From Sarea resinae (lineage: Eukaryota), in assembly GCA_026026165.1 (NCBI GenBank), contig JAPEUD010000009.1, positions 186,001 to 250,000 of the forward strand: 64,000 nt of DNA, given 5' to 3'. Below the pieces are notes generated by a model. The model was not told the origin of the DNA, searched no databases, and was given only the letters and a program-made list of their open reading frames with translations. Position numbers and translations under genes: made by a program. Shown piece after piece: positions 6,785-50,600 of this stretch. Each line of letters begins with the position of its first letter. Position 1 is the stretch's first letter.

Positions 6785-7108
6785 AGATGGATGGATGGAT
6801 GGACGGAAGGACGGATGAATCCAATGTACATGAAGTACATGAACGTCTATAAGATAGGTAGTAGCTAGCCATTCAGAGCAAAAGCAAAAGCAAAAGCAGA
6901 GTAGATTAGAGCAGAGTAGAGTAGGGTAGAGTAGGGTACTCTGGAGGCGAGTCGAGTGGCCAGCGCTGAATAGCCAGGTTGTCAGCTTCAAAGTGTTCTT
7001 GGCTCTTGATGGCTTAGTAGCTTCATGGCTTGATAATTGATATCTAATCTACACACACATAATCACTCCTACACCGTACACACGCCATTGAGCATCGTCG
7101 GGCCAGGA

Positions 7109-7147
<39 letters not shown>

Positions 7148-7465
7148 GGGGGGCCCATAACATAAAAATGGCGATTCTCGAATCGCACAAGACAGGACCC
7201 CGGGCGATAGATATGTCTGGAGCGGAGGCCACATACCATGTAGATGGGCCTGAAAGTCTCTGGGAAACATATGAGTGGAGCTATTGTCGTTGTCGTTTGT
7301 CTGTGCTACCATCTATCCATCCATACCTTACCTTAGCTTAGCTGAGGTGGAAAGAGAAAGGGAAAGGGAAAGGGAAAGGGAAAGGGAAATAGCTACGGTA
7401 CTGAGGGATATAAATCGTAGACGTCTCTGGTCATGTTATGAAGAGAGATAGAGAGAGAGAGAGGG
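6785..7465. repeat. Cluster of simple sequence repeats between convergent 3' ends
   Basis: (GATG)n ~6786-6802, (CAAAAG)n ~6878-6897, AGAGT/AGAGC-type units ~6898-6935, G30 run 7112-7141, (AAAGGG)n ~7357-7388, (AG)n ~7442-7468. Confidence 0.9.
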
Positions 7466-7858
7466 AGAGCAACTCTGGGCCTTACTGTTGGCGGGTCGGG
7501 GAGTGGGGGTGGGGCATAGGAATGATGGCCGGACATTTATTGGATGTCACGGTTCAGTTGCGCGTGAGGGGTGTGGTCGAGTTGGCGGTTCATCTAAACT
7601 TCTCAGATGGGACTCTGGACTTGCGTTTGAGCACATATGCGGCTGGAAATAAGTCGCCGGACCGGGCCTGGCTGGCTCGCTGGCTGGCTGTCACGACATA
7701 GCAACGTCAAGAAAGATGTCTGTGCGTGCTTGAGATTTGGAACATGGAAATTTGATGAATGCATGTCGTCGTCTTGATAACAACGGGAAAATACAACGCA
7801 TTCCGTTTTATCCTCCCCACCACCGAATCCCTGGCCTTCGTCGTCCTCAACCCGTCCC

Positions 7859-8855
7859 CTACTCCTTCGTCTTCTGCGTACCACGGAGCAGACCGGTTCT
7901 CCGGGCGGCGATGAGACCGGCCTTTTGACCTTGGGCGGCGTACCGGGAGATGGTCGAGGCTTTACCGATATGTTGATGGTTACCACCACCGTGAGGCTGG
8001 AAGAGGGAAATGTGTTAGTGCTGGCGAGGCATGTCTCCGGAAAGAAGGGTAGTCTTACATGGTCGACGGGGTTCATGGCAACACCACGAGTCTTGGGCCA
8101 CGAGTTACGCTTGACAGCGAACTTATGCTTGGCACGCGATGCCTCTGTTATACTTGTCAATTCTGCTCTCATGTTTGTTGAAATCCCGAGAGCAACGTAC
8201 TCAGCAGCGGCTTGTCAGTTCGTCCACCACCAGCAACGATCCCGATCATTCCTCTTGCGGAGCTCTTGACGATCTTCTTGGCTCCACTGGGGAGCTTGAC
8301 TCTGGTCTTGCCCTCATCCGGGTTGTGGCCGATGACGGTGACATAGTTGCCAGAGGTACGGCCAAGAGCGCCGCGGTCGCCGGCCTTCTCCTCGACGTTG
8401 GTGACAACGGTACCTTCAGGCACAGAACCCAGAGGAAGAACGTTTCCGACGGTCAGCGCGGCGTTCTTGCCGGCGTAGATGAATTGGCCGGTGTACATGC
8501 CCTCGTTGGCGATGAAGGTCTCGGTGTGGAGCTTGAAGCGGTACGGGTCACGGAAGACGACCTTAGCCAGAGGCGCGCCTCGGCCAGGGTCGTGGATGAT
8601 GTCCTTCACCACGCCGCGAATGTAGCCATGTCGCTCGGCATAGTCGAGGGATCGGAACTGGGCGGGGGCCTTGTTGAGACGGGTGTGGGCCGCTGTGATG
8701 CGAAGGTTTCAATCAGCTTTGACGTTTCCTTTTCCAGCCTCATGATCTTCTTGTGATCCCAATGATATCTCTCCCACTATGCATCTGGAACCGGATGAGC
8801 ACGTACTGAATATCGAGCCACGACCCTTTCTCTGATTGCGAATAACTCTACCCAT
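7859..8855 (-). CDS. RPL2: 60S ribosomal protein L2 (uL2)
   Basis: [16 protein letters not shown] start at 8855; [53 protein letters not shown]. Three coding introns plus a probable 5'UTR intron 8958-8864. Confidence 0.97.
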
Positions 8856-9063
8856 CGTTCCTACTGCAGACAGGATCAGAGTCAGTATCTATGTCGACAA
8901 TATAACAGCCCTGGATGGGACAATGGATTCCGCAATGGGGTCTGGATGGTCGGCATACCTCGTCTCGAGTGTGGTGGTGTGGGAGAGTCTTGGTCGTCGT
9001 CGTGATCTTGTCGCTTTTTCGTCAATCGACTCGATGCGATACTCAGAGACCTCTTGAGGCCTT

Positions 9064-9175
9064 AGCCCTTAGTGTGGTGCCGGTCAGTGTGGGCTCGTTT
9101 GGAGAGATTCGCTTCGATTACTCTTTGTGGCACAGATTCACGGCACGAGTGACTCCACAGCAGTCCCAGCCCTAA
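9064..9175. promoter_or_regulatory. Putative ribosomal-protein promoter motifs upstream of RPL2
   Basis: AGCCCTTA (9064-9071) and AGCCCTAA (9168-9175) resemble the GCCCTAA-type motif associated with RP promoters in filamentous ascomycetes; CAGTCCCA (9161) is one mismatch from Homol-D CAGTCACA. Confidence 0.45.
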
Positions 9176-9489
9176 ACGACGTTGCCGCTGCTGTCAGGGC
9201 CATTCGGCCTTTCAATCATTGCTTACGGAATCAGCCATGCTGTCCACGGGTCTGATATCAACGATGCCAACGAGCATCAAATCTTCTTCGGTCCTTCCTC
9301 TCTTCCAGGCCAAGGTAATCTCTTGATCCTCTGAGCTCAAGACGTCTTGAGTTGCGGCTTCTTCGAGGCTCCTGTAAAGGTCACGTGAAGGCCGTCCTGC
9401 TCGATGTCCGAAGTACTCGTACGAAGTACCGTAATAGACGTCTACTTCTCCTCCAGCTAGTACCTCCTAGTGGATCCCTCACGTACACC

Positions 9490-10600
9490 ACCAAATATCA
9501 TCATCGCTCATTCCGCTCGAGCTTATCGCCTTCGCTCTGTCACACTTTCTGAAGTATCGTCGAGTGCGGTCGTGGCACCCTCTTTCTACGATGCTGTGGT
9601 TGCGATGGGCGGTTGGTCCATTTCTTAGGAACTCTTGAGTGTTCGCCTTGTCATATGTGGCTCATGGCTTCATCTTCGCTCCAGCTTACATCGACCACTT
9701 TTCCCCGCGAGTGGCACCATCTACTTTGTTGTTTGGCTTATCAAGAGCAAGATAAAATACGCGTATTTGGCTTCAACTTGATTCGAGTCTTCTTTGTTTT
9801 TTGCGCTATGCGGTTTGCATTGCCGAGATTGCAGTCGATTGGCTTCATTTCTATGTCTGCGCGTTTCCTAGGTTGAGTTGTTGCCTCAATACCTCTTGTT
9901 CTCGATTTGCGAAAGCATACTTCACGAGATGGTGGATGCGCGTGGTGGCGACTTCAAACCACTTGAGTCTTGCTCTCGGCCCTGGGCCCCCCCGCAAAGA
10001 GAACTTCATTTCCGGGCATGTACCGATCCTAGTTCTCGTTGACGAGCTCATCGTCTTTTCTGCCTTCTACACGTCCACACGGCTCTACAAGGTGGCTCGA
10101 TGCTTCTAGTTGATGGTTATCACGAGTAGGGCGACGTGTTAGTCTGGGCCCATGATGCTGCGACTTTGCCATGTCAATCTTCATCGTCATCCGTCATTAC
10201 GCGTGGTGATCAAGCTCTCTCGCTTGGGATGCTCATCAAATGGAGCCGCAAATACAATACATATTCAGTCTGTCCTGTGGCGCCCACCATGCGAAAGAAA
10301 AGTGAACGTGTTTACGGAAAGTGCCTCATCGCTGTCTCGATCGTCGCTATCAGCACCGACTGTACTGTCAAGACAGCTTCCTCTGAATCGCATCATGGCC
10401 CTGGCTCTTCGGCCTCAAGAAGATCGAATGCTCGTGCACCTAGACTATTCCTGTGCCTGTGCATGGCCCCTCTCGAAATTGCTGGCCGATGCGCTCCCGC
10501 AGTGCCCAGCCTGTAGCTTGACCCCCGTAGCCCACGCGCGCGTAAATGGTCTATGTGCTGGTCGTAGCTTCGTAGACCGACCGGCGTCCATCTAACACCT
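9490..10600 (+). ncRNA. Candidate large structured non-coding RNA or structured 5' leader (unassigned)
   Basis: No credible ORF. More than a dozen complementary segments, several nested and several needing G-U pairs on the + strand; see findings. Confidence 0.4.
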
Positions 10601-10651
10601 CCGCAACTATTGACCCTCAACCCCCAACAGCACAACGCCAGCAAGAGAAGT

Positions 10652-12791
10652 ATGTCTGCTTCGTCTTCGCCTTTGTCGTCGGTGCCATCGTCCGATGATG
10701 AGCTGTCTCCTCCGCCGGAATCGCTGAGAAGCTCGAAAGCAGATCTCTCGGATAGTCATGGTGCGCTCGATAGCTCGCGCGAGAGCTCCCCAGCGCAACC
10801 AGATAGACCAGAGTCACCGCCCCACGAATACGTCCTCGCCGACAATCCTGACATCGCTGTAAGCAAATTGAATCCCTAGCCAGCTGCCTGACGCGTAATT
10901 ATATGCCTGAAGCCGTTGCTGACTACAGATGTCCGCCTAGTTCATCGTCATGTTCCGTTCCCGCTTCGCCCAAGTTTTCCCCAAAACTTTGCCCAACTTT
11001 GGCCCTCAGGACATAGAATCAGGAGTGGTGGACTCTGTGGCTGGAGAACAAGTTGAGAATCTGCTTTGCGCGCTGGTCAGCTTGGTGTTGAACCGGAAGA
11101 AATTCGTGGAGTGAGTACAGAGCTGGGATAGCAGGTCTTCCAGCTAGGCGCCTGGCATGTCATACGTCTCCATTGGCCAAATGCTAATATTTCCGGTGCG
11201 CTCAAAGGAGAGGACATCATTTACGGGCTCTGGAGGAGTGCATTCTATCACAGAAGCATCAATGGCCGGCCGCTTGGAAAGGTGCCAACCCACTATCAGG
11301 AGGGAGGAGCTTTACGACCATGACACCAAGTGAAAAGGTAATTGTAGAATGGTCTTCTGCGATATAGATACTAATAAGCTCTACAGCTCATTCTTCTGAA
11401 AGCACTGATCCTATGGGCTTTGAGCTCCTCAGAAGCCATCCAGGCTATAATAAAAGATTCCTACAAGCAAGCGCGGCACGATGATGATCTCAACCAGCCT
11501 TTATCCGTACAGCCTTGGGGCCGAGATAGTGCCAAGCGGAGATATTGGCTTATTGAAGGGCTGGATGATACATATTTCAGACTATATCGAGAGAGCAGTA
11601 CTACGGCAGCGGAGAACACTTGGAGGAGTATCGCAGGAAGCATCGAAGACCTAAAAGTCATTGCGGCGAAGCTGAGTGCAGAAAAGGGCCAAGCCGCCAG
11701 GAGACTCAGTGATAGAATATCTGCTGCAATTCCCAGGTTTGAGTCGACAGAGGAGGTACGGTTCGCAGCGAATGTGTGCTTGGACTATGCTGATTTATGA
11801 ACAGAAGAGGAAGCGTCGCGAATACCGGCAATCACGGAAAAATCAATTCCGCCGACCAGAGCCAGGATTTTCTCTCTACGAAGGAAGGACTAGAGGAAAG
11901 CGGATGAGATATACTTTCTCGGACGATGAAGACGATTCAGACTCCACTTCCAACCGCCGCTCCACCCGTCAATCCGGTAACTCCACACCTGCAGAGCCAG
12001 CTGGCCCAACCTTTACAGCCAGTGGACGACAGGTCAAACCCAGGCAAGGTGGTGCATATGGAGAAACGACATCGAATGATCAAAGCAGGAGAATATCCCC
12101 TTCGAGCGGCGTTATTCAGCGGAAAGATGACCCAGAGGAGATTCTTCGAAACGCCAGTGGTCGGCCCCAACGCTCTGGACGGTCTGGTTTGAGACAAGAG
12201 CTCGACGGCTGGACTAAAGGCGGTGACCACATTGAGGGATATAACTCCGTGGACGAAATCGAAGAAGAAGAAGATGCTGCGTCCAGTGGCAACGAGTGGG
12301 ACGGAGGTGAAGACGACGACGATCATGCTCAGGACCTCCTTTCGGACGGTGATGGACAAGATGACGAACTGTCCGAGGAGGATGAAGACATGGACGATGT
12401 GGATATGGATGAGGACACCAGAGGCAGTCTTGTGGTGCAGCTCCGATATAATCAAACACCTGAGAAGACTACCGACAGCACCGAAGAACAGCAAACCGAG
12501 GCTACAAAGTCAGAGCCCAAGGAGAGCAGCGAGAGCAAGCCTCCTGGGGGTGGTGATGCCAAAATAAAGCCCGAGTTCATCAGCAACGGCTACCATTCTG
12601 CGACGACGTCGGTCAAAGACTGGTCCGATACTAAATCCCTCAACGGGCCGGCAGGAGCAGGAGCAGCTCCAGCATCCATTCCGCCTCCCCTGCCTCCGGC
12701 ACATTCCTCCTTGGATCCCAAGCAATCAGAAGAAGCTCTTCTGTCGACCAAAGTGCTTCCCGAACCGGCGGCTTCTTCAGGACCGCCGTGA
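10652..12791 (+). CDS. WHIM1/WSD-domain chromatin-remodelling-associated protein
   Basis: Five exons (10652-10858, 10941-11110, 11208-11337, 11387-11755, 11805-12791) splice in frame: PPHEYVLADNPDIAFIVMFRSRF, LILLKALILWAL, QPWGRDSAKRRYWLIEG, YEGRTRGKRMRYTFSD, acidic disordered tail. Confidence 0.82.
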
Positions 12792-13328
12792 CAGTTTCGC
12801 GATCCAGTCTGTTTCATGTGCTTTCAACTCATTTCCGGCTCGATTTGTGGGAAATCGAAAAGCGCCGGCTGTGAAAATGTAACGAGCGAGCTTACCTGTT
12901 TTCATCTCATTACTAGATCAAAGATTCCCCGGGCTATTTGTAAGTGCGTGGACGGTTCAAAATATGGTCGAGTCTTGCGGCGTCCTTTTTCTTCCTACGT
13001 TCTACAACGGGCTAGATGTTACTTGAATGTCTAAATGAAGTCTTCCCTAGGCAGTCTTTCAAAAGCAACAGTTCTCAACACTCGATCAGATATGATGCTC
13101 TCATCATTGTGCGATAATTGACCCTCTTTCTCGTGAATTTGAGATGGAGCTAGAACGCCGCAGTTGCTTCATATATACACCACCCTAAAAGTTCTATGCA
13201 CGAGGCAAAGTTTCTCAAAACCCTGATGAACATGTCCAATGCAGAAACGCCGCGTATATGCAATGAGCGTAGCAAATCCATGCCCTGCTCCTCTCTTCCT
13301 CCGTCTCAGGATAGCAAAGGCCCTGAGG

Positions 13329-24886: not shown

Positions 24887-27800
24887 TGAGCTCGAAGGGA
24901 CTGACCGAGAAAACTGACGAGACGAAGAAAATTGCATTCGTGAGCTCCGGGTACGCGCTGCTTGCGGGGAAGAAGAGTCGAGGCCTTTTCCTTTGTTTAT
25001 CATGGAAACGATTCGCGGATTTTGTGATTAGCCGCTGCCCGTCTTTTCTCCCGCCTCTCATCATGATGCAGCTTGTGCATCTTTCTTCTGCCGAGCGTAC
25101 TAGCATGGCGCAAGGACATGGGACCATTACTATCATCGTCAATCATCTACTAGCATGTACAATAGTTCATTATGAAAACTCAGCCTCTTGTCAATCAACG
25201 TCGATGATGCAATGACGGCGGTCTCGACAGCTTGGCATGGAGCAGCGGTCAGGTGTAGGTGGTGAGACCATGCATGTCACGGTGCAGGAGAGCGGAGAGG
25301 GGATCTACAAGACGAGCAGATCTCGCCATCCGAAGGACCATCGGCAGAATGAGCGAAGAAGGTCGGGGCGGAAAAATACATGGACGGATCCATGGTGGAT
25401 GCGAGGGGACGGCAGAATGTTGTTGCAGTGGATACCTACCTTAGCATGTGCTTGCCATCCAACTAGCAGACTGCTGCCGCCGTCGGTCGTCGTAGGAGGG
25501 CCCTGATGTAATGCAGATCTCGCTGGGTGCGAGGGAGCATTCCCGGAATGGTGATTGTGCCACGCGAGAGAAGAGGCCCCGTTGAGGGCGCGATCAGCAT
25601 CACCGCATGAAGGACGTGAACGATGGGCATCAACGGTCGACCCATGCCAGTGGATTGATTGATTGATTGATTAATCAATTGATTGTACTTCGTAACGCGG
25701 GTCCCTTGGAACAACGAGAACGATTCACACGGCAAGTGCTTGACTACGGCATCCGTGCCGCACCACTCGGGACGGTGGTGGATTGCATTGTCAGTTCATG
25801 TCTTCATCTAAGTTGCTTTGGTCGGGCAAAATCGTAATACGTAGCGGTCATCTCACTAATCTCTTACGAGAGCGCATGAGGCGCAAGGCAGGAACGGCGA
25901 CCGAACGGAGATTCCGCATCTACACACCAACGTTCTGGCAAGGAAATGAAGCAGATGGCTGGGTTTCACATCCCATCTCAGGGTATCTCAGGGTATCTCC
26001 AGGTTCTGAGCTGATGGCGCGGGGGATAATCTCTGGTGTCGGATCAGTCAATCAGACGGCTTACTGGAGAAGCCCACTTTTATTTTTCCTTCTTTCTTTC
26101 GTGCATACGATATAGTCATTCTAGGGTCACAGAGATGCGCGCATTGGGCTGGAGGATTGCCGATAGATTGCATTGGGAGGATATAAGTGGCCCGCGATAC
26201 CCGCAATTTCATGAGTCGCGGACAGGGGCGAGGAAGCTTGACCCACCGAAGCAACGCCGAGGCACACGCGCCGTCGTTCGGATGGACAAACTAAGTAGTG
26301 CGGGCGTGTGCGTGTGCGTGTGTGTGTGTGTGACTAACCTCGAGGTACTACACTACACTACATGCCTCACTCGAAGAACGGCGTGGCTTTTCGCTACGGA
26401 GCACCAGCGCAATCCATCGTTACCTCGATGAGGTGCCGACGGGACGCTGGAGGGAATGGGAGCTCGTGCTGGTGCTGGTGCTCGTGCTGGTGCTGGTGCA
26501 AGAAGGACTTCAGGTACCGGTACCCGCCACTCCAGGTACGGGGGATGGTCCAGTCGAGAGCAATGGGAGTAAGCAAGCAAACTGGAGGGCTGCTGAGCCG
26601 CTTGCGAGGTACTTCCGTAACAAGGTACGAACTACGAATACCGTACTTCGTACACTCGATGGGTGGAGCTATCGTCGATGGAGCAAAGTGCCGCCGCATC
26701 TCTTGTGTCTCTGGTCAGCACGAACGAGCCCCTCTGGCAGATACGGTTGGTGAGGGCGATGGTTGACTGACGGTTACGGCGCTGTACGAGAAAGCGGATC
26801 CACCCGCCCACATGCAACATGCGAAATGATGTCAAGCGGGGCCAACCGTGCGTGCCCACTGCCCGTTCGTGACCTGTACCACGAGTACTGTGTACTCCGG
26901 AGGAGGGCCTGGACTGCGCAGTAGCGAGCATTGCTTGAACCACCACGTAGGTACCTAGTACGCATGGCGAACGACCGGGCAGCCCTCGAGGGCAGAGGGC
27001 ACACAACTCGTCAGCCCTTGCGCAGGGTCTCTGCCTCGACAACCCTTGCCCTGTCGCCCCTGCCCCTGCCCTGCCTTGCCCGCCCCTCCTCTCTGGTCCC
27101 TCTGTGGTCCCTCCTGGTCCCTCCCTGGTCCCTCCCTTGGCCCCCCCTCCGCCCCTCCCACCATCCTTCCCCCCCCGGTCAAGGCGTTGCTAGTATTTCG
27201 TGCACCGTCGACAGCAAAGCGGCAAAGGGTCCTTGGAGTCCCCGCCCTGGCTCCGCGATGGACCCACATGAGATCCAGTCCCGTTGCGGGGAGAGTCTCC
27301 GCTCAATCAAACCTTGAGCGAGACCCTTTCCTCTCCTGGCCAATTGCCCGGCCAATGACGTTCGTCATGGCAGACCCAACTCCTCCGAGTCCAAGGCACT
27401 GCTCATAGTACGAGTACGCTCCCATGGATCGTGGTTGGGACGGCTGCGTACTCTGCGCGCACATGTCGTCGTACCTGCTACGACCGTTCGAGTAATGAAG
27501 TGCGCCGACTCGCGACCTTACGTATCGTGGATCCGTGGATTCATGGATTCATGGATCCTCCCCTCCGTCACCACATCGTGCACAAGGATCCGACAGGGTT
27601 CGCGCCGTCTGCGTCCGCGCAATTTGCAAATCCTTTCAGTTTCCGACCCGTTTGGCGCGGCTCCGTCGACGAAAGGTTGAACCAATGCCGGGAATGTGAT
27701 GGATTCCCCGGACGGCTGAGCAGGCCCACGATATAAGTAGACGCCAACATCCCCAGACCGGTGCTGGTTTGCTTTCCTCTCCATCCTCTTCATCCTTAGT

Positions 27801-27917: not shown

Positions 27918-29697
27918 ATGCCTCCACGATTTATGGGCCTCACGGGGAGGCCGCTCAGTCTGATGGTCTCGTCGATCGCCACCATGGGCTTCTTACTGTT
28001 TGGTTACGATCGTAAGTCTATTCGCCGAATCATGATGGGAGCGTTCTGAATACTAATCCTGCTCCAGAGGGTGTGATGTCTGGTATCATCACCAACTACC
28101 ACTTCAACCAAATGTTCACTGCCACCAGAGGTGACTCGACCATGCAAGGTCTCGTCACTGCCGTTTACGAACTTGGCTGCTTCTTTGGTGCTCTTTTCAT
28201 TCTCTGGATCGGTGATCGATTCGGTCGACGAAGGTCCATCATGCTCGGTGGCTGGATTATGATCCTCGGTGTCGTTATTCAGATCAGCTCGGTCGCCGGT
28301 CACGTCCCTCTGGCGCAGTTCATGGTTGGACGAGTAAGTAGCGACAAGGAAAACCCCCATATTGCAAATCCCGCTCACAATTTACAGGTCATTACTGGTG
28401 TTGGCAATGGAATCAACACTTCAACGATCCCAACCTACCAAGCCGAATGCTCCCATACTAGCAACCGTGGTCTCCTCATCTGTATCGAAGGTGGTACGGT
28501 TGCCTTTGGCAGCTTGATCGCCTACTGGATCGACTTTGGCTCCAGCTATGGCCCAGCGGACCTGACCTGGCGTTTCCCGATCGCTTTCCAGATTGTCTTC
28601 GGCCTTGTCATTGGCATCGGCATGTACTGGATGCCTGAATCTCCCCGCTGGCTCATGAGTCGGGAACAGTACGAGTCTGCTGAGATCTCCATTGCTGCGC
28701 TCCGTGGAAAGGAAATCAACGACCACGAGACCCAGCTCCAGAAAACCGTCATTATGGACAGCATCCGCGCATCTGGATCAATCGGCCAAAAGACCCCTTA
28801 CAGCGCTCTCTTCACTGGAGGAAAGACGCAGCACTTCCGCCGCATGCTTCTGGGAGCGTCTTCGCAATTCATGCAGCAGATTGGTGGCTGCAACGCCGTC
28901 ATCTACTATTGCCCAGTCCTCTTCCAGGATTCGCTCAATCTCTCTCGTACCCTCTCCATGATCCTCGGTGGTGTTAACATGGTTGTCTACGCAATGTTTG
29001 CAACTATGTCGTGGTTTCTCATCGAAAAGGCTGGGCGTCGCAAGCTATTCATCGGGGGTACCATCGGCCAAACCCTTTCGATGGTTCTCATCTTTGCCTG
29101 TCTGAAAGCTGGTGGCAAGGGCCCCGCCAAAGGTGCAGCCGTCGGCCTTTTTACCTTCATTGCCAGCTTTGGCGCCACCTGGTTGCCGCTCCCCTGGTTG
29201 TACCCAGCTGAGATCAACCCGATCAAGACGCGCTCTCGAGCCAATGCGATCAGTACTTGCTCGAATTGGCTTTTCAACTTCCTGATCGTCATGATCACTC
29301 CCATCATGATCGACAACATCCACTGGGCGACGTACCTCGTCTTCGCCGTCATCAATGCCTGCTTCCTCCCCGTCATGTATGTTGCTCTTTCCCTCACTAT
29401 CAGATTAGGCGCTAACAAACGTTCAGCATTCTCTTCTACCCTGAGACTGCTCATCGGTCTCTCGAGGAAATCGATCTCATCTTCGCCAAGGGATACCTTG
29501 AGAATATGACCTATGTCCGGGCTTCTCACGAGTTGCCCTTCCTCACGGATGATGAGATCGAGGCCAAGGCCATCGAATACGGCTTCGACTTCGAAGACGA
29601 CGACTTCCATGCCGACGAGAAGATCGGCCACCCAAGACGGAAGACCAGCTCCGAGGCTATGGCGCAGAACGTCGAGAACGCTCCGCCGCCGGTTTAG
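27918..29697 (+). CDS. STL1: MFS sugar-porter family transporter, STL1-like (probable glycerol/H+ symporter)
   Basis: Exons 27918-28011, 28068-28333, 28387/8-29376, 29427-29697; LFGYDQGVMSG, GDRFGRR, PESPRWL, QQIGGCNAVIYY, WLYPAEI, YPETAHRSLEEID. Confidence 0.88.
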
Positions 29698-30132
29698 GTG
29701 TTATCTATCAAGGGTGGGACCGATTCTTGTTCGAGATTGCATGGTTAAGGGAGGTTCAAGGTGTTTTCTTTTTCATGTCTGTTTGATTTTGACGATATAT
29801 GTTTGCATCGCGACGTGCTATATACCACAACTGTGAAATAGATTCATAGAAAAACGCCTGAAATGATAGAATTGTTCAAGAACGTATTCCATTTTTTAAT
29901 GGGGGTTAATGACCTTCATGTCGCTTTGCATGCCGAATGTGTTTGGCTGAACTGAATCTGATGAGGGTCGAGGGTTGTTGAGATATAAATGCGGTGGATA
30001 TGAAGGAAGGTACTGCAGGGGGCGAAAGGAGCCTATACCGAGACTGCGTTGGGTAAAGGCAGGACAAGCTCTCAATTTCCCAGTCACGGTGAATATTGAA
30101 GAGGGGAGAAGTACAGGAGGAAGGAAGCAATC

Positions 30133-30850
30133 TCATCCGTATTCGGTGCCTCCCTCTTCTTCCTCGTCTTCTTCATCATCTTCAATCATGACCACATCCT
30201 GATTCCCGCCTGACCCTTTCCTATCCTGATTACCGTCGCCTAGTATCTGCCCCAACGTCCCCTCGCTATCCCTTCCCTCCCTCCTAGCCCTGAGAACCTC
30301 GAGCCTAGCCAACCGTACAACCTCCTCTTCTGCCTTCCTCACTGTCCCTGAGACTCGTACAACACGAAACACGCACTTTTCCCCTCCTGCAGCTGCAGGC
30401 AGAGACGTTAGAAACGAGAGCGCGACCCAGACGAGTCGGTAATGCGCTCTTGGGCAGCGGATTATGGCTGTGCTAGTAGCCGGGGAGAGATATTTGACTG
30501 TTTCATTATTCTGCATTAGCGGTGATGCTTATGGGTGGTATAAACGGCGACAAGAAAAGAAAGCCAAGGAACGATTTACCAGCTAGGCCTCCAGCCCCCA
30601 AAGCACCCACGCCGTAATCTCCGAACAACACTCCGACCTCGTTTCTGATCATACGAATCAACAATTGTTGCGTGAGGGCGTCCGGGGTGGGATGGTGGGA
30701 TTGTAGGAGAGGGGGAAGATTCCGAGCAGCAGCTGGTTTGGACTTGACATTTGTGCTCGAGTTGGCGGCTGTATTGGTGTTCGCGTTGGCGCTGGAGGAA
30801 GATGGGTAGAGGATGCGCACCAGCAAATAGCGATTCTTGAGCCGGACCAT
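30133..30850 (-). CDS. POP5: RNase P/MRP subunit Pop5 (Rpp14/Pop5 family)
   Basis: MVRLKNRYLL, LFGDYG; intron 30579-30498 joins to VKYLSPATSTAIIRCPR, then VSGTVRKAEE. Confidence 0.92.
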
Positions 30851-31056: not shown

Positions 31057-32824
31057 ATGGAGTATGATACCCAGACCCGTAAGCACATATCTCTTGATCC
31101 TCGTGATATGGACCTCAAAGCTAATCGCCGTCTCAGCGCCCTACAAGACTTCGGATCAGACTTCGTTCGCCTACGTGTCTGCCCGCGATCGTTGGCCGGT
31201 GATCATCGTAAGTGTCGACTACGAAGAGCATCAGTTACAAATCTATAACCAGCTAATATTCAAAGACTGGGGCTATTGATGATGTCCACCGTGCTACAGC
31301 TATCGAGGGCAAGGAAGACCGCCGAGAGGAGGGGAAGCGTATTGTCGAGAAGTTGGCAAAGCTGAAATACGAACTGCAACATGACCGACAGCTGACGTGA
31401 GGCAATCGCAAGAATTGGTATAGTCGCTGGCTAATCGAATTCCTCTCCAGACCCATCGAAGACGACGGGCAACCAGATGTTGCAGGCTACAACCATGAGT
31501 TGGAGCAACTGGGACAGGTGACTTGGTTCAATGTCCCCTGGCTCTACGCAGAATGCTACCTCTACCGGTAATTGCAACCTTCGATGCCCCTTATCTCCAG
31601 GACCCTGATACATCCAAGCTAGACGAATGAGCACCTTCTTCAGTCTCTCGCAATACTGGAAGTCATATGACGTCTTCTCCAAGCAGAAAATATCTACCTT
31701 TAAATCCTCACGACCGGCGGTTCTCGAGCTCGCCGCCCGCTACCGGGAGCTTTCGCTTCAAGTCGAGCAAGGCAATGCCGCCTCAGCGTCTCAAACGCCG
31801 GAAGAGCTCGAGCAGGCCGAGCGTGTTCTGTTCACCGAGATGTGCGAGATCTGTCTCTGGGGAAATGCCACCGATCTGTCTCTCCTCACCTCCTTGACTT
31901 ATGAAGACATCCAGAAACTCCAGGGGTCTCAGGCGCGCAAGGATTCGGAGAAGAACATCCTCGTCAATGATTTGCCCGCCGCATACACAGTCCTAAAAGC
32001 CGCGCAGAGAGCGTCTCCGAACAAAGAGCGCAGAGTTGATATCGTGCTTGACAATGCCGGATTCGAGCTCTTCGTCGATCTGATCCTCGCAGGCTATCTG
32101 CTTTCATCCAATCTCGCCACAGCAGTGGTGCTTCATCCGAAATCAGTCCCCTGGTTCGTGTCGGACGTGCTACCCGCCGACTTTGCCGAACTACTCAATG
32201 CTCTTGCCGATCCGCAAGCTTTCTACACTACGCCATCCGCCGACGAGCAGCACGCGGGTAAAAAGCTGGAGCCGCTGTCTGCCACCGAGGCCGATAATCT
32301 ATCGTTCTTGTTCCAGCGCTGGTCCCAGTTCCACCGCGAGGGCCAGCTCATCATCCGACCGCACCGATTCTGGACCGAGGCAGGTAGCTATTGGCGTTTG
32401 CCTAAGACGGCGCCGCGGTTGTATGAAGAGCTCAAGGAAAGCGAACTCGTTATCTTCAAGGGCGATTTGAATTATCGAAAGTTGACCGGCGATGTAAGTC
32501 TTTTCAATGTTTCCCCTCGGGCTCGTTTCTCCAAACTCGGCATCCAAAACCAATATCAAAAGCCTATGGATTTTGCTAACATAATCGCAGGCCGAATGGG
32601 ACCCTACCACCCCCTTCACTACCGCCATCGGTCCCCTAGGTCCTGGCTCCGGCATCCGCACCCTGGCACTCCGCACCTGCAAAGCCGACACCGTGGTCGG
32701 GCTCCGCGAAGGCGAGGATGAGCGTCTCAGACGCGAGGAGGGTGGCGGCGGGGATTCTAGGGCAAGAAAGTGGGCGTGGAGTGGGAAGTGGGCCGTGGTA
32801 TCGTTTTGCGATGGGAAGGCTTGA
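31057..32824 (+). CDS. DUF89/ARMT1-like damage-control sugar-phosphate phosphatase
   Basis: Six exons; SFAYVSARDRWPVII, PWLYAECYLYR, LWGNATDLSLL, VLDNAGFELFVD, PWFVSDV, FKGDLNYRKL, LRTCKAD. Confidence 0.92.
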
Positions 32825-33319: not shown

Positions 33320-33401
33320 GGGCATGTGGTTTAGTGGTATAATTCCTCTTTAGCAACTACTGGTTTAGAGGCGGTCCTGAGTTCGATTCTCAGCTTGTCC
33401 A
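33320..33401 (+). tRNA. tRNA-Ala(AGC) with 10-nt intron
   Basis: Acceptor GGGCATG/CTTGTCC with the G3:U70 Ala identity pair; A box TGGTTTAGTGG; anticodon stem CCTCT/AGAGG; AGC at 33352-33354; intron 33356-33365; T arm CTGAG-TTCGATT-CTCAG; oligo-T terminator at 33407-33411. Confidence 0.95.
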
Positions 33402-47682: not shown

Positions 47683-50600
47683 CTAAGTATCATCCACAAG
47701 CCTCTTAGCCTCATAAGCCTTCTTGGCCTCCCGTTCAAGACTTTCCAAATCACCACTCATCTCGCACATGCCCTTGAACGCTCCTCCGTCCTTTCTTACT
47801 AGATGCCAAGGATCGTCGTACTCGACCACACGGCCTTTGTCGAGCACCAGCACCTTGTCATAATCGATGATTGTTTGCAAGCGGTGTGCAATCGTGATGA
47901 TGGTGCTCCTTAGCTCTCTTATCGTCTCTTGAATCTTCGCATCCGTAGCATAGTCAATCGAAGCCGTTGCTTCGTCCATGAGGAGAACGTTAGGGCTTTT
48001 GAGGAGGGCGCGAGCAAGACAGAGTAGTTGTCGTTGCCCTTGAGACAGGTTAGAACCCGACTCGGTGACGTGGGAAGTCAGATCGAGGAAAATGTTTTTG
48101 TTGTCTGAGTGGGTGGGTGTGCTCGTCCCATTGGCTCCGTTGGGGATGCTGGGAGTGCCAGAGGGAGTAGGGGTAGCAGAGGTCGAAGCTGCTGTCGAGG
48201 GATCGATGAGATGCACGCGACGGAGGGCGTTAAATATCTCTTCATCTGTGAACACGCCGAACGGATCGAGATTGCTACGAATCGTGCCAGTGAAGAGAGT
48301 AGGATCTATATGTGCATTAGTTGCATGCTGCTTGTGATCTTTGGTGAGAGCTTTACCTTGAGGTACTATGGTGATAGACTCCCTCAGATCTCTGAGCCCG
48401 ATTAGGCCAATATCGACATCATCGATCAGGATCTTGCCCTCTTCGGCCTCCAGACCCCGGAAAAGGGCCAGCGCCAGCGAGCTTTTGCCAGCACCGGTCC
48501 TACCAACAATACCTACTTTTTGTCCCGGAGAGATATGGAAGCTCACATTTCGCAGGACTGGATCGAAGTCTTCGCGGTATCGAGTGGTATAATTGATGAA
48601 TTGCACGGAGCCTTGGCTGGGCCAATTGGCAGGCGGTCTCATGTCAGGTATGACGGGAGCAGATTCCTGCTCTACATCGAGATATTCCTTGATGCGTTCC
48701 ACCCTTTTTCTCGTCAGGTAAAGACATTCGGCAGCGGATCGGGATACTTACGAGTTCATATTTTGCTCATTGTTGGCGTAGAGTCGAACAAGCCATAGGA
48801 CGTTTTCTGTGAACGTGACAGCGTAAGTCAACGAAAGACCAGCGGCACCGGCATCAATCTTTCCAGTGCTAAGAATAACAAACGTCCCAGCAAAGAAGGA
48901 TACGAGAGCACCCGTGACGTCAACACGGAAGGAGAGCCATCGGTTCGCAGCCCACAGATATATGAACGGCCGATTGTGCGTGTTGACACGGCTTAGATTG
49001 TCCCGAACGAATCGTTTCTCATCCGCATATGCACGAATGGTCGTAGTCCCGGTGAGCGTTTCTCCGAAATGTTGATACAACGGACTTCGTTGGACAGACT
49101 CCAGCCTTTTGAGATCTCTTGACGTGTTGATATAGAATTGGCCGATGAAAAAGTACATGGCGCTGATGAATACGCCAGCAATAAGGAATCCTGGGGTGAT
49201 CACTGAGATGAGTATCACAATGGTGATGACAGAAGCGAGGCAATGAAGCATTCCCACCGCTACCGGTGCAACTTCTTGGTCCACGGCTTCAATGTCCCGA
49301 GAGAATCTATTCATGATCTGTCCCAGCGGCGTCGAGTCGAAGAACCTTAATTTCGCGCGTGTGACTGATTCGAGGAGACGCTGATGTATTTTCCAGGAAG
49401 CAGAAAGTGAACCACCGAAAAGGACGCCTTCTCTGACAAAGGTAATGACCATGAAAGCGAAACCAAGGAAAGCGTAGATTCCTAGATAATAGGGAACATT
49501 GACCTCGGCCGATGATGCTGTTGAAAATCCTTTGGGTGTCTGCTTTGTGGAGAAAAGCATATCCCACCCACATGTGCCACGCGTGAAGCAATTGCCATAA
49601 AGAGCATCACGACCGGTATGAACATAGTTCTGTACCGGCGGTTCGGCGGAAGTCCCGGTGACCCCGGTGGTAGCGATTGCATGATAATGATAAGCGTTGG
49701 CCCAATTTCTGATCCAAACGTTGGTTGCGACAGACGAAATCTGTTGCCCGGCAAAAACAACCAACGCAGCAGTCCAAAATGGCCACGAGCCCATGGCGGC
49801 AAGGTACAGATGTATTATTTGCAGTTTTACACCTCCTTCAGCTTTTCCTTCAGTCCTTAAATTTGCGTTTCCAGGCCCATTGGCGGGCTCCTTTGGTTTG
49901 CTTGCCTTGCCGTTGAGGCCATTGTCGATAGTACCATTGGTGCCATTCGCATGTTCACCTTCTCCAAGGGCCTCTTCCCCTCCCACATCGGACGGTACGC
50001 GTGAGGGCATAGTGGAGGCTGGCTTTGAGGCAGGCCTTGATCTTGACATTTCTTCGCCCAGGAGTCCGGATTCGATAACCTCTTCTGGGGAACCTTGTGA
50101 TGCAATTCTTCCATTCGCAAGGATCACGACCATTTTAGATTTCGGTACACATAAAGCGACGTTGTGCGTAACCAAGACACACGTTCGATTGTACATTAGT
50201 GGCCCCATGATGCAATGATCGAAGATCCACTTGGCGGTGTGCGAGTCCACAGCGCTCAAGCAGTCATCCAGCAAGACATGACGAGAGTTGCAATATAAGG
50301 CCCTAGCGAGCGAGATCCGCTGCTTTTGACCGCCCGACAGCGTAATGCCCTTTTCACCCACCAGAGTCTCATCACCATTGTCAAGAATCTGCAGATCTTT
50401 TTCGAGGGCACATGCTACGAGGACGGTTTTGTACCTTCGTTCGTCCCAAGGGCTGGCAAAGATAATGTTTTCTTTGATCGTATCGTTGACGAGCCAAGCT
50501 TGTTGGGAACAGTACGCCACACTCTCAGTCAGACCAGTTTCTCGGTCCACGTGAAGATCTTCCCTGCTGTGTCCTCCAGGCAGATAGACCGAGCCTTCCA

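Follow-up and report, generated by a model that had tools for sequence, protein, structure and literature searches.

Evidence for non-coding RNA from the spacer between RPL2 and a WHIM-like gene in Sarea resinae

The spacer between a ribosomal-protein gene, RPL2 (uL2), and a gene with WHIM-like motifs was analysed in the fungus Sarea resinae, within a stretch of 64,000 nucleotides (GenBank assembly GCA_026026165.1, contig JAPEUD010000009.1, positions 186,001 to 250,000) that we call the window and whose intron-rich organisation is eukaryotic and of fungal style. The block under study, positions 9490-10600 of the window, fills most of this spacer. It had been proposed, from its letters alone (hereafter the sequence-only reading), to be a densely base-paired, novel structured RNA. 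Our results indicate that the block probably belongs to an ordinary, already described type of non-coding spacer that is transcribed.

Genes and boxes around the spacer

The features on which the argument rests are given below in the order of their coordinates in the window.

7880..8855, minus strand: RPL2 (uL2) gene, lower bound approximate, from a Pfam domain and sequence reading
8864..8958, minus strand: probable intron of 95 nt within the RPL2 5' untranslated region (UTR) (GTATGC ... ACTGAC ... CTGCAG), from sequence reading
9169..9176, unstranded: AGCCCTAA, one TTAGGG/CCCTAA box of Tbf1 type in the RPL2 upstream region
9381..9388, unstranded: tCACGTGa, exact Cbf1-type consensus, 107 nt ahead of the first base of the RNA contig
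9495..10254, unstranded with plus favoured: non-coding stretch colinear with an RNA contig from a relative that is about 94% identical
9715..9934, plus strand: 220-nt nested arm (arm b), the only piece to fold better than its shuffles, with pairs that are not kept in the relative
10152..10595, plus strand: open frame of 147 codons, judged a chance open reading frame (ORF), with no Pfam family and no homologue
10543..10624, plus strand: possible 5' UTR intron of the WHIM-like gene (GTAAAT ... CTAAC at 10592 ... CAG at 10622-10624)
10556..10651, plus strand: C/A-rich stretch of 96 nt, free of ATG, ahead of the WHIM-like start codon
10652..12791, plus strand: WHIM-like downstream gene with several introns, from WHIM1/WSD-like motifs with weak Pfam scores

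The two genes are divergent, with about 1.8 kb between their start codons. RPL2 was recognized by its Ribosomal_L2_C domain, which Pfam matches with E = 8.8e-24 when 8202-8699 is translated from the minus strand. Its start codon (8855-8853) opens a first coding exon that is read as 8855-8807 with introns after it, and splice joints at 8144->8201 and 7996->8059, with CT..AC ends that are GT..AG on the minus strand, can be found in RNA contigs from a wood decay metatranscriptome. The 3' end of the putative 5' UTR intron lies 8 nt ahead of the start codon at 8855. Because of this likely intron at 8958-8864, transcription of RPL2 would start near 9000-9050. Downstream of the gene, simple repeats occur between 6895 and 7389: (AGAGT)n at 6898-6938, a run of 42 G at 7112-7153 and (GGAAAG)n at 7349-7389.

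Both boxes, at 9169-9176 and 9381-9388, lie between the presumed RPL2 start and the block. The CACGTG at 9382, which the sequence-only reading had called promoter-like, is present in the context tCACGTGa. In the portion of PMC2834713 used here, tCACGTGa is given as the Cbf1 consensus and TTAGGG as the Tbf1 motif, and Cbf1 and Tbf1 are described as driving ribosomal-protein genes in Candida-type fungi. By analogy with those fungi, the two boxes are putative binding sites of Cbf1 and Tbf1. Two adjacent copies of CGAAGTAC (GTCCGAAGTAC / GTACGAAGTAC, repeat family D12) were also observed at 9406-9429, as part of what had been described as a GTAC cluster; they lie past tCACGTGa and ahead of the RNA contig, and are possibly a factor-binding site. 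Further toward RPL2, the plus strand at 9060-9072 reads CCTTAGCCCTTAG, in which a 7-nt unit that is near but not equal to the telomere-type CCCTAA occurs about 1.8 times.

The assignment of the downstream gene comes from an exon at 11387-11758, which matches the Pfam families WHIM1 (E = 0.01; 15.8 bits against a curated cut-off of 19.1) and WSD (E = 0.015; 15.9 bits against a curated cut-off of 25.4). On the plus strand, 23 ATGs can be found in 9495-10651 and none in the final 96 nt before the start codon. This ATG-free stretch suggests that the gene has its own short leader, and 10556-10651 would probably comprise that leader together with the core promoter. More generally, the final 100-250 nt of the block probably serve as promoter and leader of the WHIM-like gene. 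If the possible intron at 10543-10624 is real, transcription of the WHIM-like gene would begin within the last part of the block.

In a DNA run, a single unbroken contig extends over 8695-12784, and the block is single-copy. A reading of the block as a nuclear mitochondrial DNA segment or as a repeat was discarded in view of this contig and of a G+C content of 46-53%.

An RNA contig and the coding capacity of the block

The block is more than empty spacer, and the sequence-only reading's own ground for refutation, that no transcript exists, does not apply. Of four sequencing runs considered, two contain any of this region: the DNA run, possibly from the source itself, and the RNA run, the wood decay metatranscriptome already mentioned. 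The RNA run contains a fraction of 0.07 of the words of 7800-12800, and one of its contigs (762 nt) aligns colinearly over 9495-10254, from which it differs by 46 substituted letters and 3 gaps, and shows no splice joint. Its left end is 5 nt from the start of the block and some 640 nt away from the RPL2 ATG, with 3 unmatched letters, and its right end falls inside a 5-nt tandem, AATACAATACA. The same run also contains many RPL2 contigs from various organisms, of which one differs from the window at 5 of 302 bases; since spliced RPL2 contigs are among them, the library contains processed RNA. Contig depth was 23.3 for the block; the best-matching RPL2 contig had a depth of 33.4, and one at 12649-12800 a depth of 3.8. 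This is no more than a hint of a much higher abundance of the block RNA relative to the WHIM mRNA, as contig depth cannot rank genes. Contigs of at least 90% likeness were found neither on 8635-9469 nor on 10305-11807, and most of the WHIM-like gene was likewise uncovered, which is no evidence of silence.

It is conceivable that the contig does not stem from a transcript of this locus at all, being DNA in the RNA library, or coming from another copy or another organism. An RNA library may hold DNA, and a single contig from a single study is at issue. Nevertheless, spliced RPL2 contigs occur in the same library, the DNA run shows a single, uninterrupted copy of the block, and the contig stays colinear with the block for 760 nt (94% identity). 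We regard such an origin as quite improbable. A metagenome locus found by scanning with the 20-mer at 10005-10024 was rejected as a relative, having only 27 nt in common with the window (92.6%), a chance match.

The plus strand is favoured by the position of the contig relative to the two boxes, by the excess of T over the covered stretch and by the 9495 end, which bears no long run of unmatched letters; none of the three amounts to proof. The plus strand of 9495-10254 contains 17.6% A and 32.4% T, and the region of AT skew between -0.2 and -0.4 coincides with the covered stretch. A non-coding transcript of the minus strand, running from the WHIM-like promoter region (at or beyond 10254) toward RPL2 and ending near 9495, would agree with contigs that carry no strand and with the A-richness of the window's coding sense strands, a property shared by the minus strand of the block. 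GTACGT also occurs on the minus strand at 9486-9481, just beyond the contig end. A poly(A) end at 9495 should, however, add more than 3 unmatched letters, which is a weak argument, and the 21 ATGs on the minus strand leave no room for an RPL2 leader. Taken with the folding results given below, a minus-strand origin seems unlikely. One such leader, spliced from the GTACGT at 9486 to the acceptor at 8864, was considered and rejected: it would carry the 21 upstream ATGs, a 5' splice site closer by, at 8958, already defines an intron of normal length (95 nt), and the contig does not end at 9487.

On the plus strand, the RNA could also be a long 5' leader of the WHIM-like gene, or the product of an upstream alternative start, that runs from about 9490 into the coding exons and is laden with upstream ORFs. 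Block RNA of this kind would share the strand and direction of the gene, the right end of the contig, lying within a short tandem repeat, may reflect a break in the assembly, and the possible intron at 10543-10624 would place the WHIM-like start upstream of 10543. Set against this are the 23 upstream ATGs, which give way to an ATG-free stretch immediately ahead of the start codon, and, though not decisive, the lack of a contig joining the block to the coding exons. We hold this extension to be rather doubtful.

The covered stretch is non-coding. The four longest ATG-initiated ORFs in 9440-10320 encode 73, 66, 57 and 53 amino acids, and in the relative three of them are frameshifted by a 1-nt insertion after 9702 or a 2-nt deletion at 9984, two of these three gaining two stop codons each. 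In most ORFs of the covered stretch, non-synonymous changes outnumber or equal synonymous ones, and none of these ORFs has a CaaX-type end. No Pfam family was matched by the five block ORFs tested. For the 147-codon frame at 10152-10595, a protein collection provided 33 candidate homologues (lengths 80-258), none at E <= 0.01. With ORFs broken in the relative and neither Pfam families nor homologues, a coding role of the block was rejected. An mRNA for a small peptide (under 55 amino acids) within the covered stretch is very improbable on the same evidence of frameshifts, gained stops, missing CaaX ends and missing Pfam matches, although short ORFs do exist and the 53-amino-acid ORF (10029-10190, minus strand) runs past 10053, the last listed difference.

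Pairing, folding and constraint

All 31 motifs quoted in support of a structured RNA are present, at most 1 nt from where they had been placed (CATCGC starts at 9502 rather than 9503), and the quoted partners are complementary. Helices of this sort are at chance level in the block, since 1.1 kb yields dozens of such pairs. We counted Watson-Crick word pairs in 9490-10600 and compared them with 200 dinucleotide shuffles. There were 148 complementary pairs of 6-mers against a shuffle mean of 137.5 (a count reached by 49 of the 200 shuffles), 35 pairs of 7-mers against 33.1 (77 shuffles), 8 pairs of 8-mers against 8.7 (117 shuffles) and 2 pairs of 9-mers against 2.0 (110 shuffles).

Folding energies led to the same result. 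The minimum free energy (MFE) of the whole block was -347.2 kcal/mol on the plus strand, compared with -345.6 +/- 8.7 for 40 shuffles (z = -0.18), and -336.0 on the minus strand, compared with -338.1 +/- 8.8 (40 shuffles; z = +0.24), no better than the dinucleotide-shuffled controls that the sequence-only reading had itself proposed as a check. Each of the four domains that it had outlined (a to d) was also folded against 150 shuffles on both strands. Domains a (z = -0.56 plus, -0.46 minus) and c (-0.93 plus, +0.96 minus) were unexceptional; domain d (10146-10401) was mildly low (-1.84 plus, 6/150 shuffles; -2.09 minus, 3/150), and domain b (9715-9934) reached -2.51 on the plus strand (3/150) and -1.57 on the minus strand. 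A sliding scan with 19 windows of 220 nt on both strands (38 values) had a mean z of +0.23, similar to the mean of +0.27 (minimum -1.82) in 36 random windows from elsewhere in the 64 kb. Its sole outlier was arm b on the plus strand, at z = -3.37 (40 shuffles).

The ends of this arm had been picked by the earlier reader for their pairing. We therefore also used a native background, in which MFE was regressed on dinucleotide content over 1958 windows from base 35 to about 54,000 on both strands. Here arm 9715-9934 ranked 446 of 1958 (z = -0.68), and the block as a whole was slightly above expectation (+0.57). The description of the block as densely base-paired is not borne out by folding energy or by complementary words, neither of which exceeds the shuffles, and arm b is stable relative to its shuffles only. 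As a separate observation, the lowest composition-corrected energies in the first 54 kb were found at 29405-30229, 26820-27424, 48325-48654 and 32595-32814 (220-nt windows, z from -2.3 to -3.1). These four regions fold far better relative to background than any part of the block; 26820-27424 partly overlaps tandem repeats at 27088-27148.

Known RNA families were searched for across the whole window. At Rfam gathering thresholds, the only match was a tRNA at 33320-33401 (plus strand, 46.8 bits), and none fell in the block. At E <= 10 on 8850-10700, only two far sub-threshold matches to C/D small nucleolar RNAs (snoRNAs) were returned, with no telomerase family among them: SNORD113 scored 19.3 bits where gathering requires 36 (E = 1.6), and sR12 scored 14.6 bits where 38 is required (E = 4.7). 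The two matches share the minus-strand interval 9470-9531. At this site, CTGA (TCAG on the plus strand) was not seen within 100 nt downstream of AUGAUGA. The proposal of a very large snoRNA or a member of a known family accordingly found no Rfam match above threshold.

The sequence-only reading had itself reported no TTAGGG-type telomerase template, and this holds: neither strand of 8850-10700 contains a 7-, 8- or 9-mer of (CCCTAA)n, although the host's telomere repeat may differ. TAACCCTAA, with up to one mismatch, has 3 matches in the window and 0 in the block. An 86-amino-acid ORF upstream of the block (8915-9175) has no twin Cx9C and is not Emi1-like. The proposal of a telomerase RNA thus lacks a TTAGGG template of at least 7 nt, with the same proviso about the host repeat.

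The differences between the relative and S. resinae do not preserve the predicted structures. In arm b, 9 of 14 substitutions fall at paired positions, and with a paired fraction of 0.62 this indicates that stems are not avoided. Six of the affected pairs are broken, 3 are kept by a one-sided change and 0 are compensated on both sides. When the same types of substitution were placed at random, 158 of 1000 placements matched or beat the relative's energy on the native structure (plus strand). In the plus-strand MFE structure of 9495-10053, 13 of 21 affected pairs are broken, 8 are kept one-sidedly and 0 show two-sided compensation, with 14 further substitutions unpaired; random placement was as good in 96 of 1000 trials. 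Predicted pairs are broken as often as under random placement, and the substitutions are not structure-preserving. The covariation check that had been proposed revealed no two-sided compensatory change, with one close relative and little power. On the minus strand of 9495-10053, the differences were worse than random, 986 of 1000 placements having equal or lower energy. This and the mostly positive minus-strand z-scores count against a minus-strand transcript, whose one favourable sign among these tests is that the differences in arm 9715-9934 were nominally gentler than random on that strand (35/1000), which we treat as a probable fluctuation from multiple testing.

Divergence over 9495-10254 is 46/760 (6.1%), and four successive segments differ by 8.2%, 6.4%, 2.5% and 5.5%. 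In RPL2, the differences (8259, 8415, 8424, 8457, 8463) all fall at third codon positions, 5 of about 101 (5%), with 0 of about 201 first and second positions changed. The similarity of 6.1% to 5% points to near-neutral drift under weak constraint: the block drifts at roughly the silent-site rate, within the small numbers available.

A functional structured non-coding RNA, whether a telomerase RNA whose template is unusual, a snoRNA of very large size or a representative of a new class, could appeal to the existence of an RNA contig, to the absence of Rfam matches (as is often the case for fungal telomerase RNAs), to a z of about -3 for arm 9715-9934 against shuffles and to the segment 9935-10053, where only 3 of 119 positions differ. 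A host telomere repeat other than TTAGGG would also leave room for an unusual template. Against these points stand global and sliding z-scores near zero, 13 of 21 hit pairs broken without two-sided compensation, divergence at the level of third codon positions, snoRNA matches far below threshold, no (CCCTAA)n of at least 7 nt in 8850-10700 and no TAACCCTAA within one mismatch in the block, which moreover is not downstream of an Emi1-type ORF as described for Ustilago in the part of PMC9564094 drawn on here. Such an RNA is improbable, and our analysis lends no support to the block being a structured RNA, a telomerase RNA or a snoRNA. Candidacy of the block as a structured or telomerase RNA should be dropped, its helices being at chance level and unprotected by natural variation.

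A divergent transcript and its known counterparts

The explanation that we prefer, with a probability of roughly 45%, is that RNA polymerase II transcribes 9495-10254 into an unspliced non-coding RNA under weak constraint, as a divergent product of the RPL2 promoter. The transcript would start at about 9490 on the plus strand, at the far edge of an RPL2 promoter that includes the CCCTAA box at 9169-9176 and tCACGTGa at 9381-9388 and that may fire in two directions, and it would head away from RPL2 toward the WHIM-like gene. Given the near-neutral drift, any function would lie in the act of transcription, for example in interference with or insulation of the downstream promoter, rather than in a conserved fold. 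Sharing of the promoter and any effect on the neighbour are what we infer from the arrangement of the locus. In this explanation, the sequence-only proposal of an independent RNA polymerase II RNA is plausible in so far as a relative has a non-coding RNA contig, while the structured character that it attached to this RNA did not stand.

Several points weigh against a divergent RPL2 product. The RNA evidence consists of one contig from one study, and it comes from a relative rather than from S. resinae. Contigs give no strand, ends or level, and the RNA library may include DNA. RNA cover of the block is limited to 9495-10254, and the contig end at 10254 may be an assembly break, with the RNA running on into the WHIM-like gene. 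A start at about 9490 would be some 450 nt from the likely RPL2 start, a large distance for a single promoter serving both. The pair and ORF tests used the differences up to 10053, which make up 35 of 46 substitutions and 2 of 3 gaps, and the neutral-rate estimate is built on 5 RPL2 differences. Finally, arm 9715-9934 kept a z of -3.01 when rerun with 200 shuffles, of which 1 folds as well, and its minus-strand differences were gentler than random placement both by energy on the native structure (35/1000) and by MFE (12/200).

By analogy with circuits in yeast, the block might encode a lineage-specific functional long non-coding RNA (lncRNA) of the ribosomal-protein regulon. Transcribed on the plus strand across the promoter of the WHIM-like gene, a chromatin-remodeller gene by its motifs, it would tie expression of that gene inversely to growth, and the U-rich arm b might bind a protein or stabilise the RNA. 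We consider this decidedly unlikely; if true, a circuit like those of IRT2/IRT1 or SRG1 would exist in a wood-decay fungus. What remains is modest, namely evidence that a fungus which has received little study transcribes a long spacer next to one of its ribosomal-protein genes as non-coding RNA.

Telomerase RNAs of other fungi offer one point of comparison. The telomerase RNA of Ustilago maydis (UmTER) is 1,291 nt long, has the template UAACCCUAA and the T/PK and CR4/5 domains, and lies, at a syntenically conserved locus, within the 3' UTR of the Emi1 mRNA, from which it is cut; a fungal template is the complement of at least about 1.5 telomere repeats (PMC9564094, in the sections drawn on here). 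Like UmTER, the block corresponds to a kilobase-scale fungal non-coding RNA that is not recognised by family libraries. It differs in having no such template and in having RPL2 and the WHIM-like gene as neighbours in place of Emi1. A putative telomerase RNA from Malassezia is, in the part of the source used, a compact RNA with template, pseudoknot, CR4/5 and Sm-site hallmarks (PMC12506658). It resembles our case as a candidate basidiomycete non-coding RNA that comes from comparative genomics with transcriptome support (PMC12506658). The four hallmarks are those of the Malassezia RNA, whereas no telomerase template was found in the block.

If transcribed on the plus strand, the block RNA is upstream of and co-directional with a regulatory gene, an arrangement that recalls better-known loci. 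In yeast, the lncRNAs SRG1 (at SER3) and IRT1 (at IME1) lie upstream of a neighbouring gene and exert their effect as transcription passes over its promoter. The poor sequence conservation of the block would fit a function of this kind, exerted by the act of transcription. The difference is that reach to the WHIM-like promoter, or an effect on it, is hypothetical here.

Ribosomal-protein promoters of budding yeast are the closest parallel. The part of PMC6602560 on which we rely describes the very active promoters of this class as having wide nucleosome-free regions of 200-400 bp, from the upstream edge of which divergent non-coding RNAs fire unless Rap1 is bound within 50 bp of their start, and it reports that IRT2, transcribed from the RPL43B promoter, disturbs a regulatory circuit. 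Within those limits, the likeness to IRT2/RPL43B lies in a non-coding RNA at the upstream edge of a ribosomal-protein promoter that heads to the promoter of a regulator, as would be the case here. Two differences can be noted. The yeast RNAs are held down by Rap1, whereas the RNA described here was present in a natural sample; and at this locus Cbf1- and Tbf1-type boxes were seen, while no search was made for a Rap1 site. If the block RNA is indeed divergent from the RPL2 promoter and reaches the chromatin gene, it would be a case of natural bidirectionality of a ribosomal-protein promoter feeding into the control of a regulator outside budding yeast.

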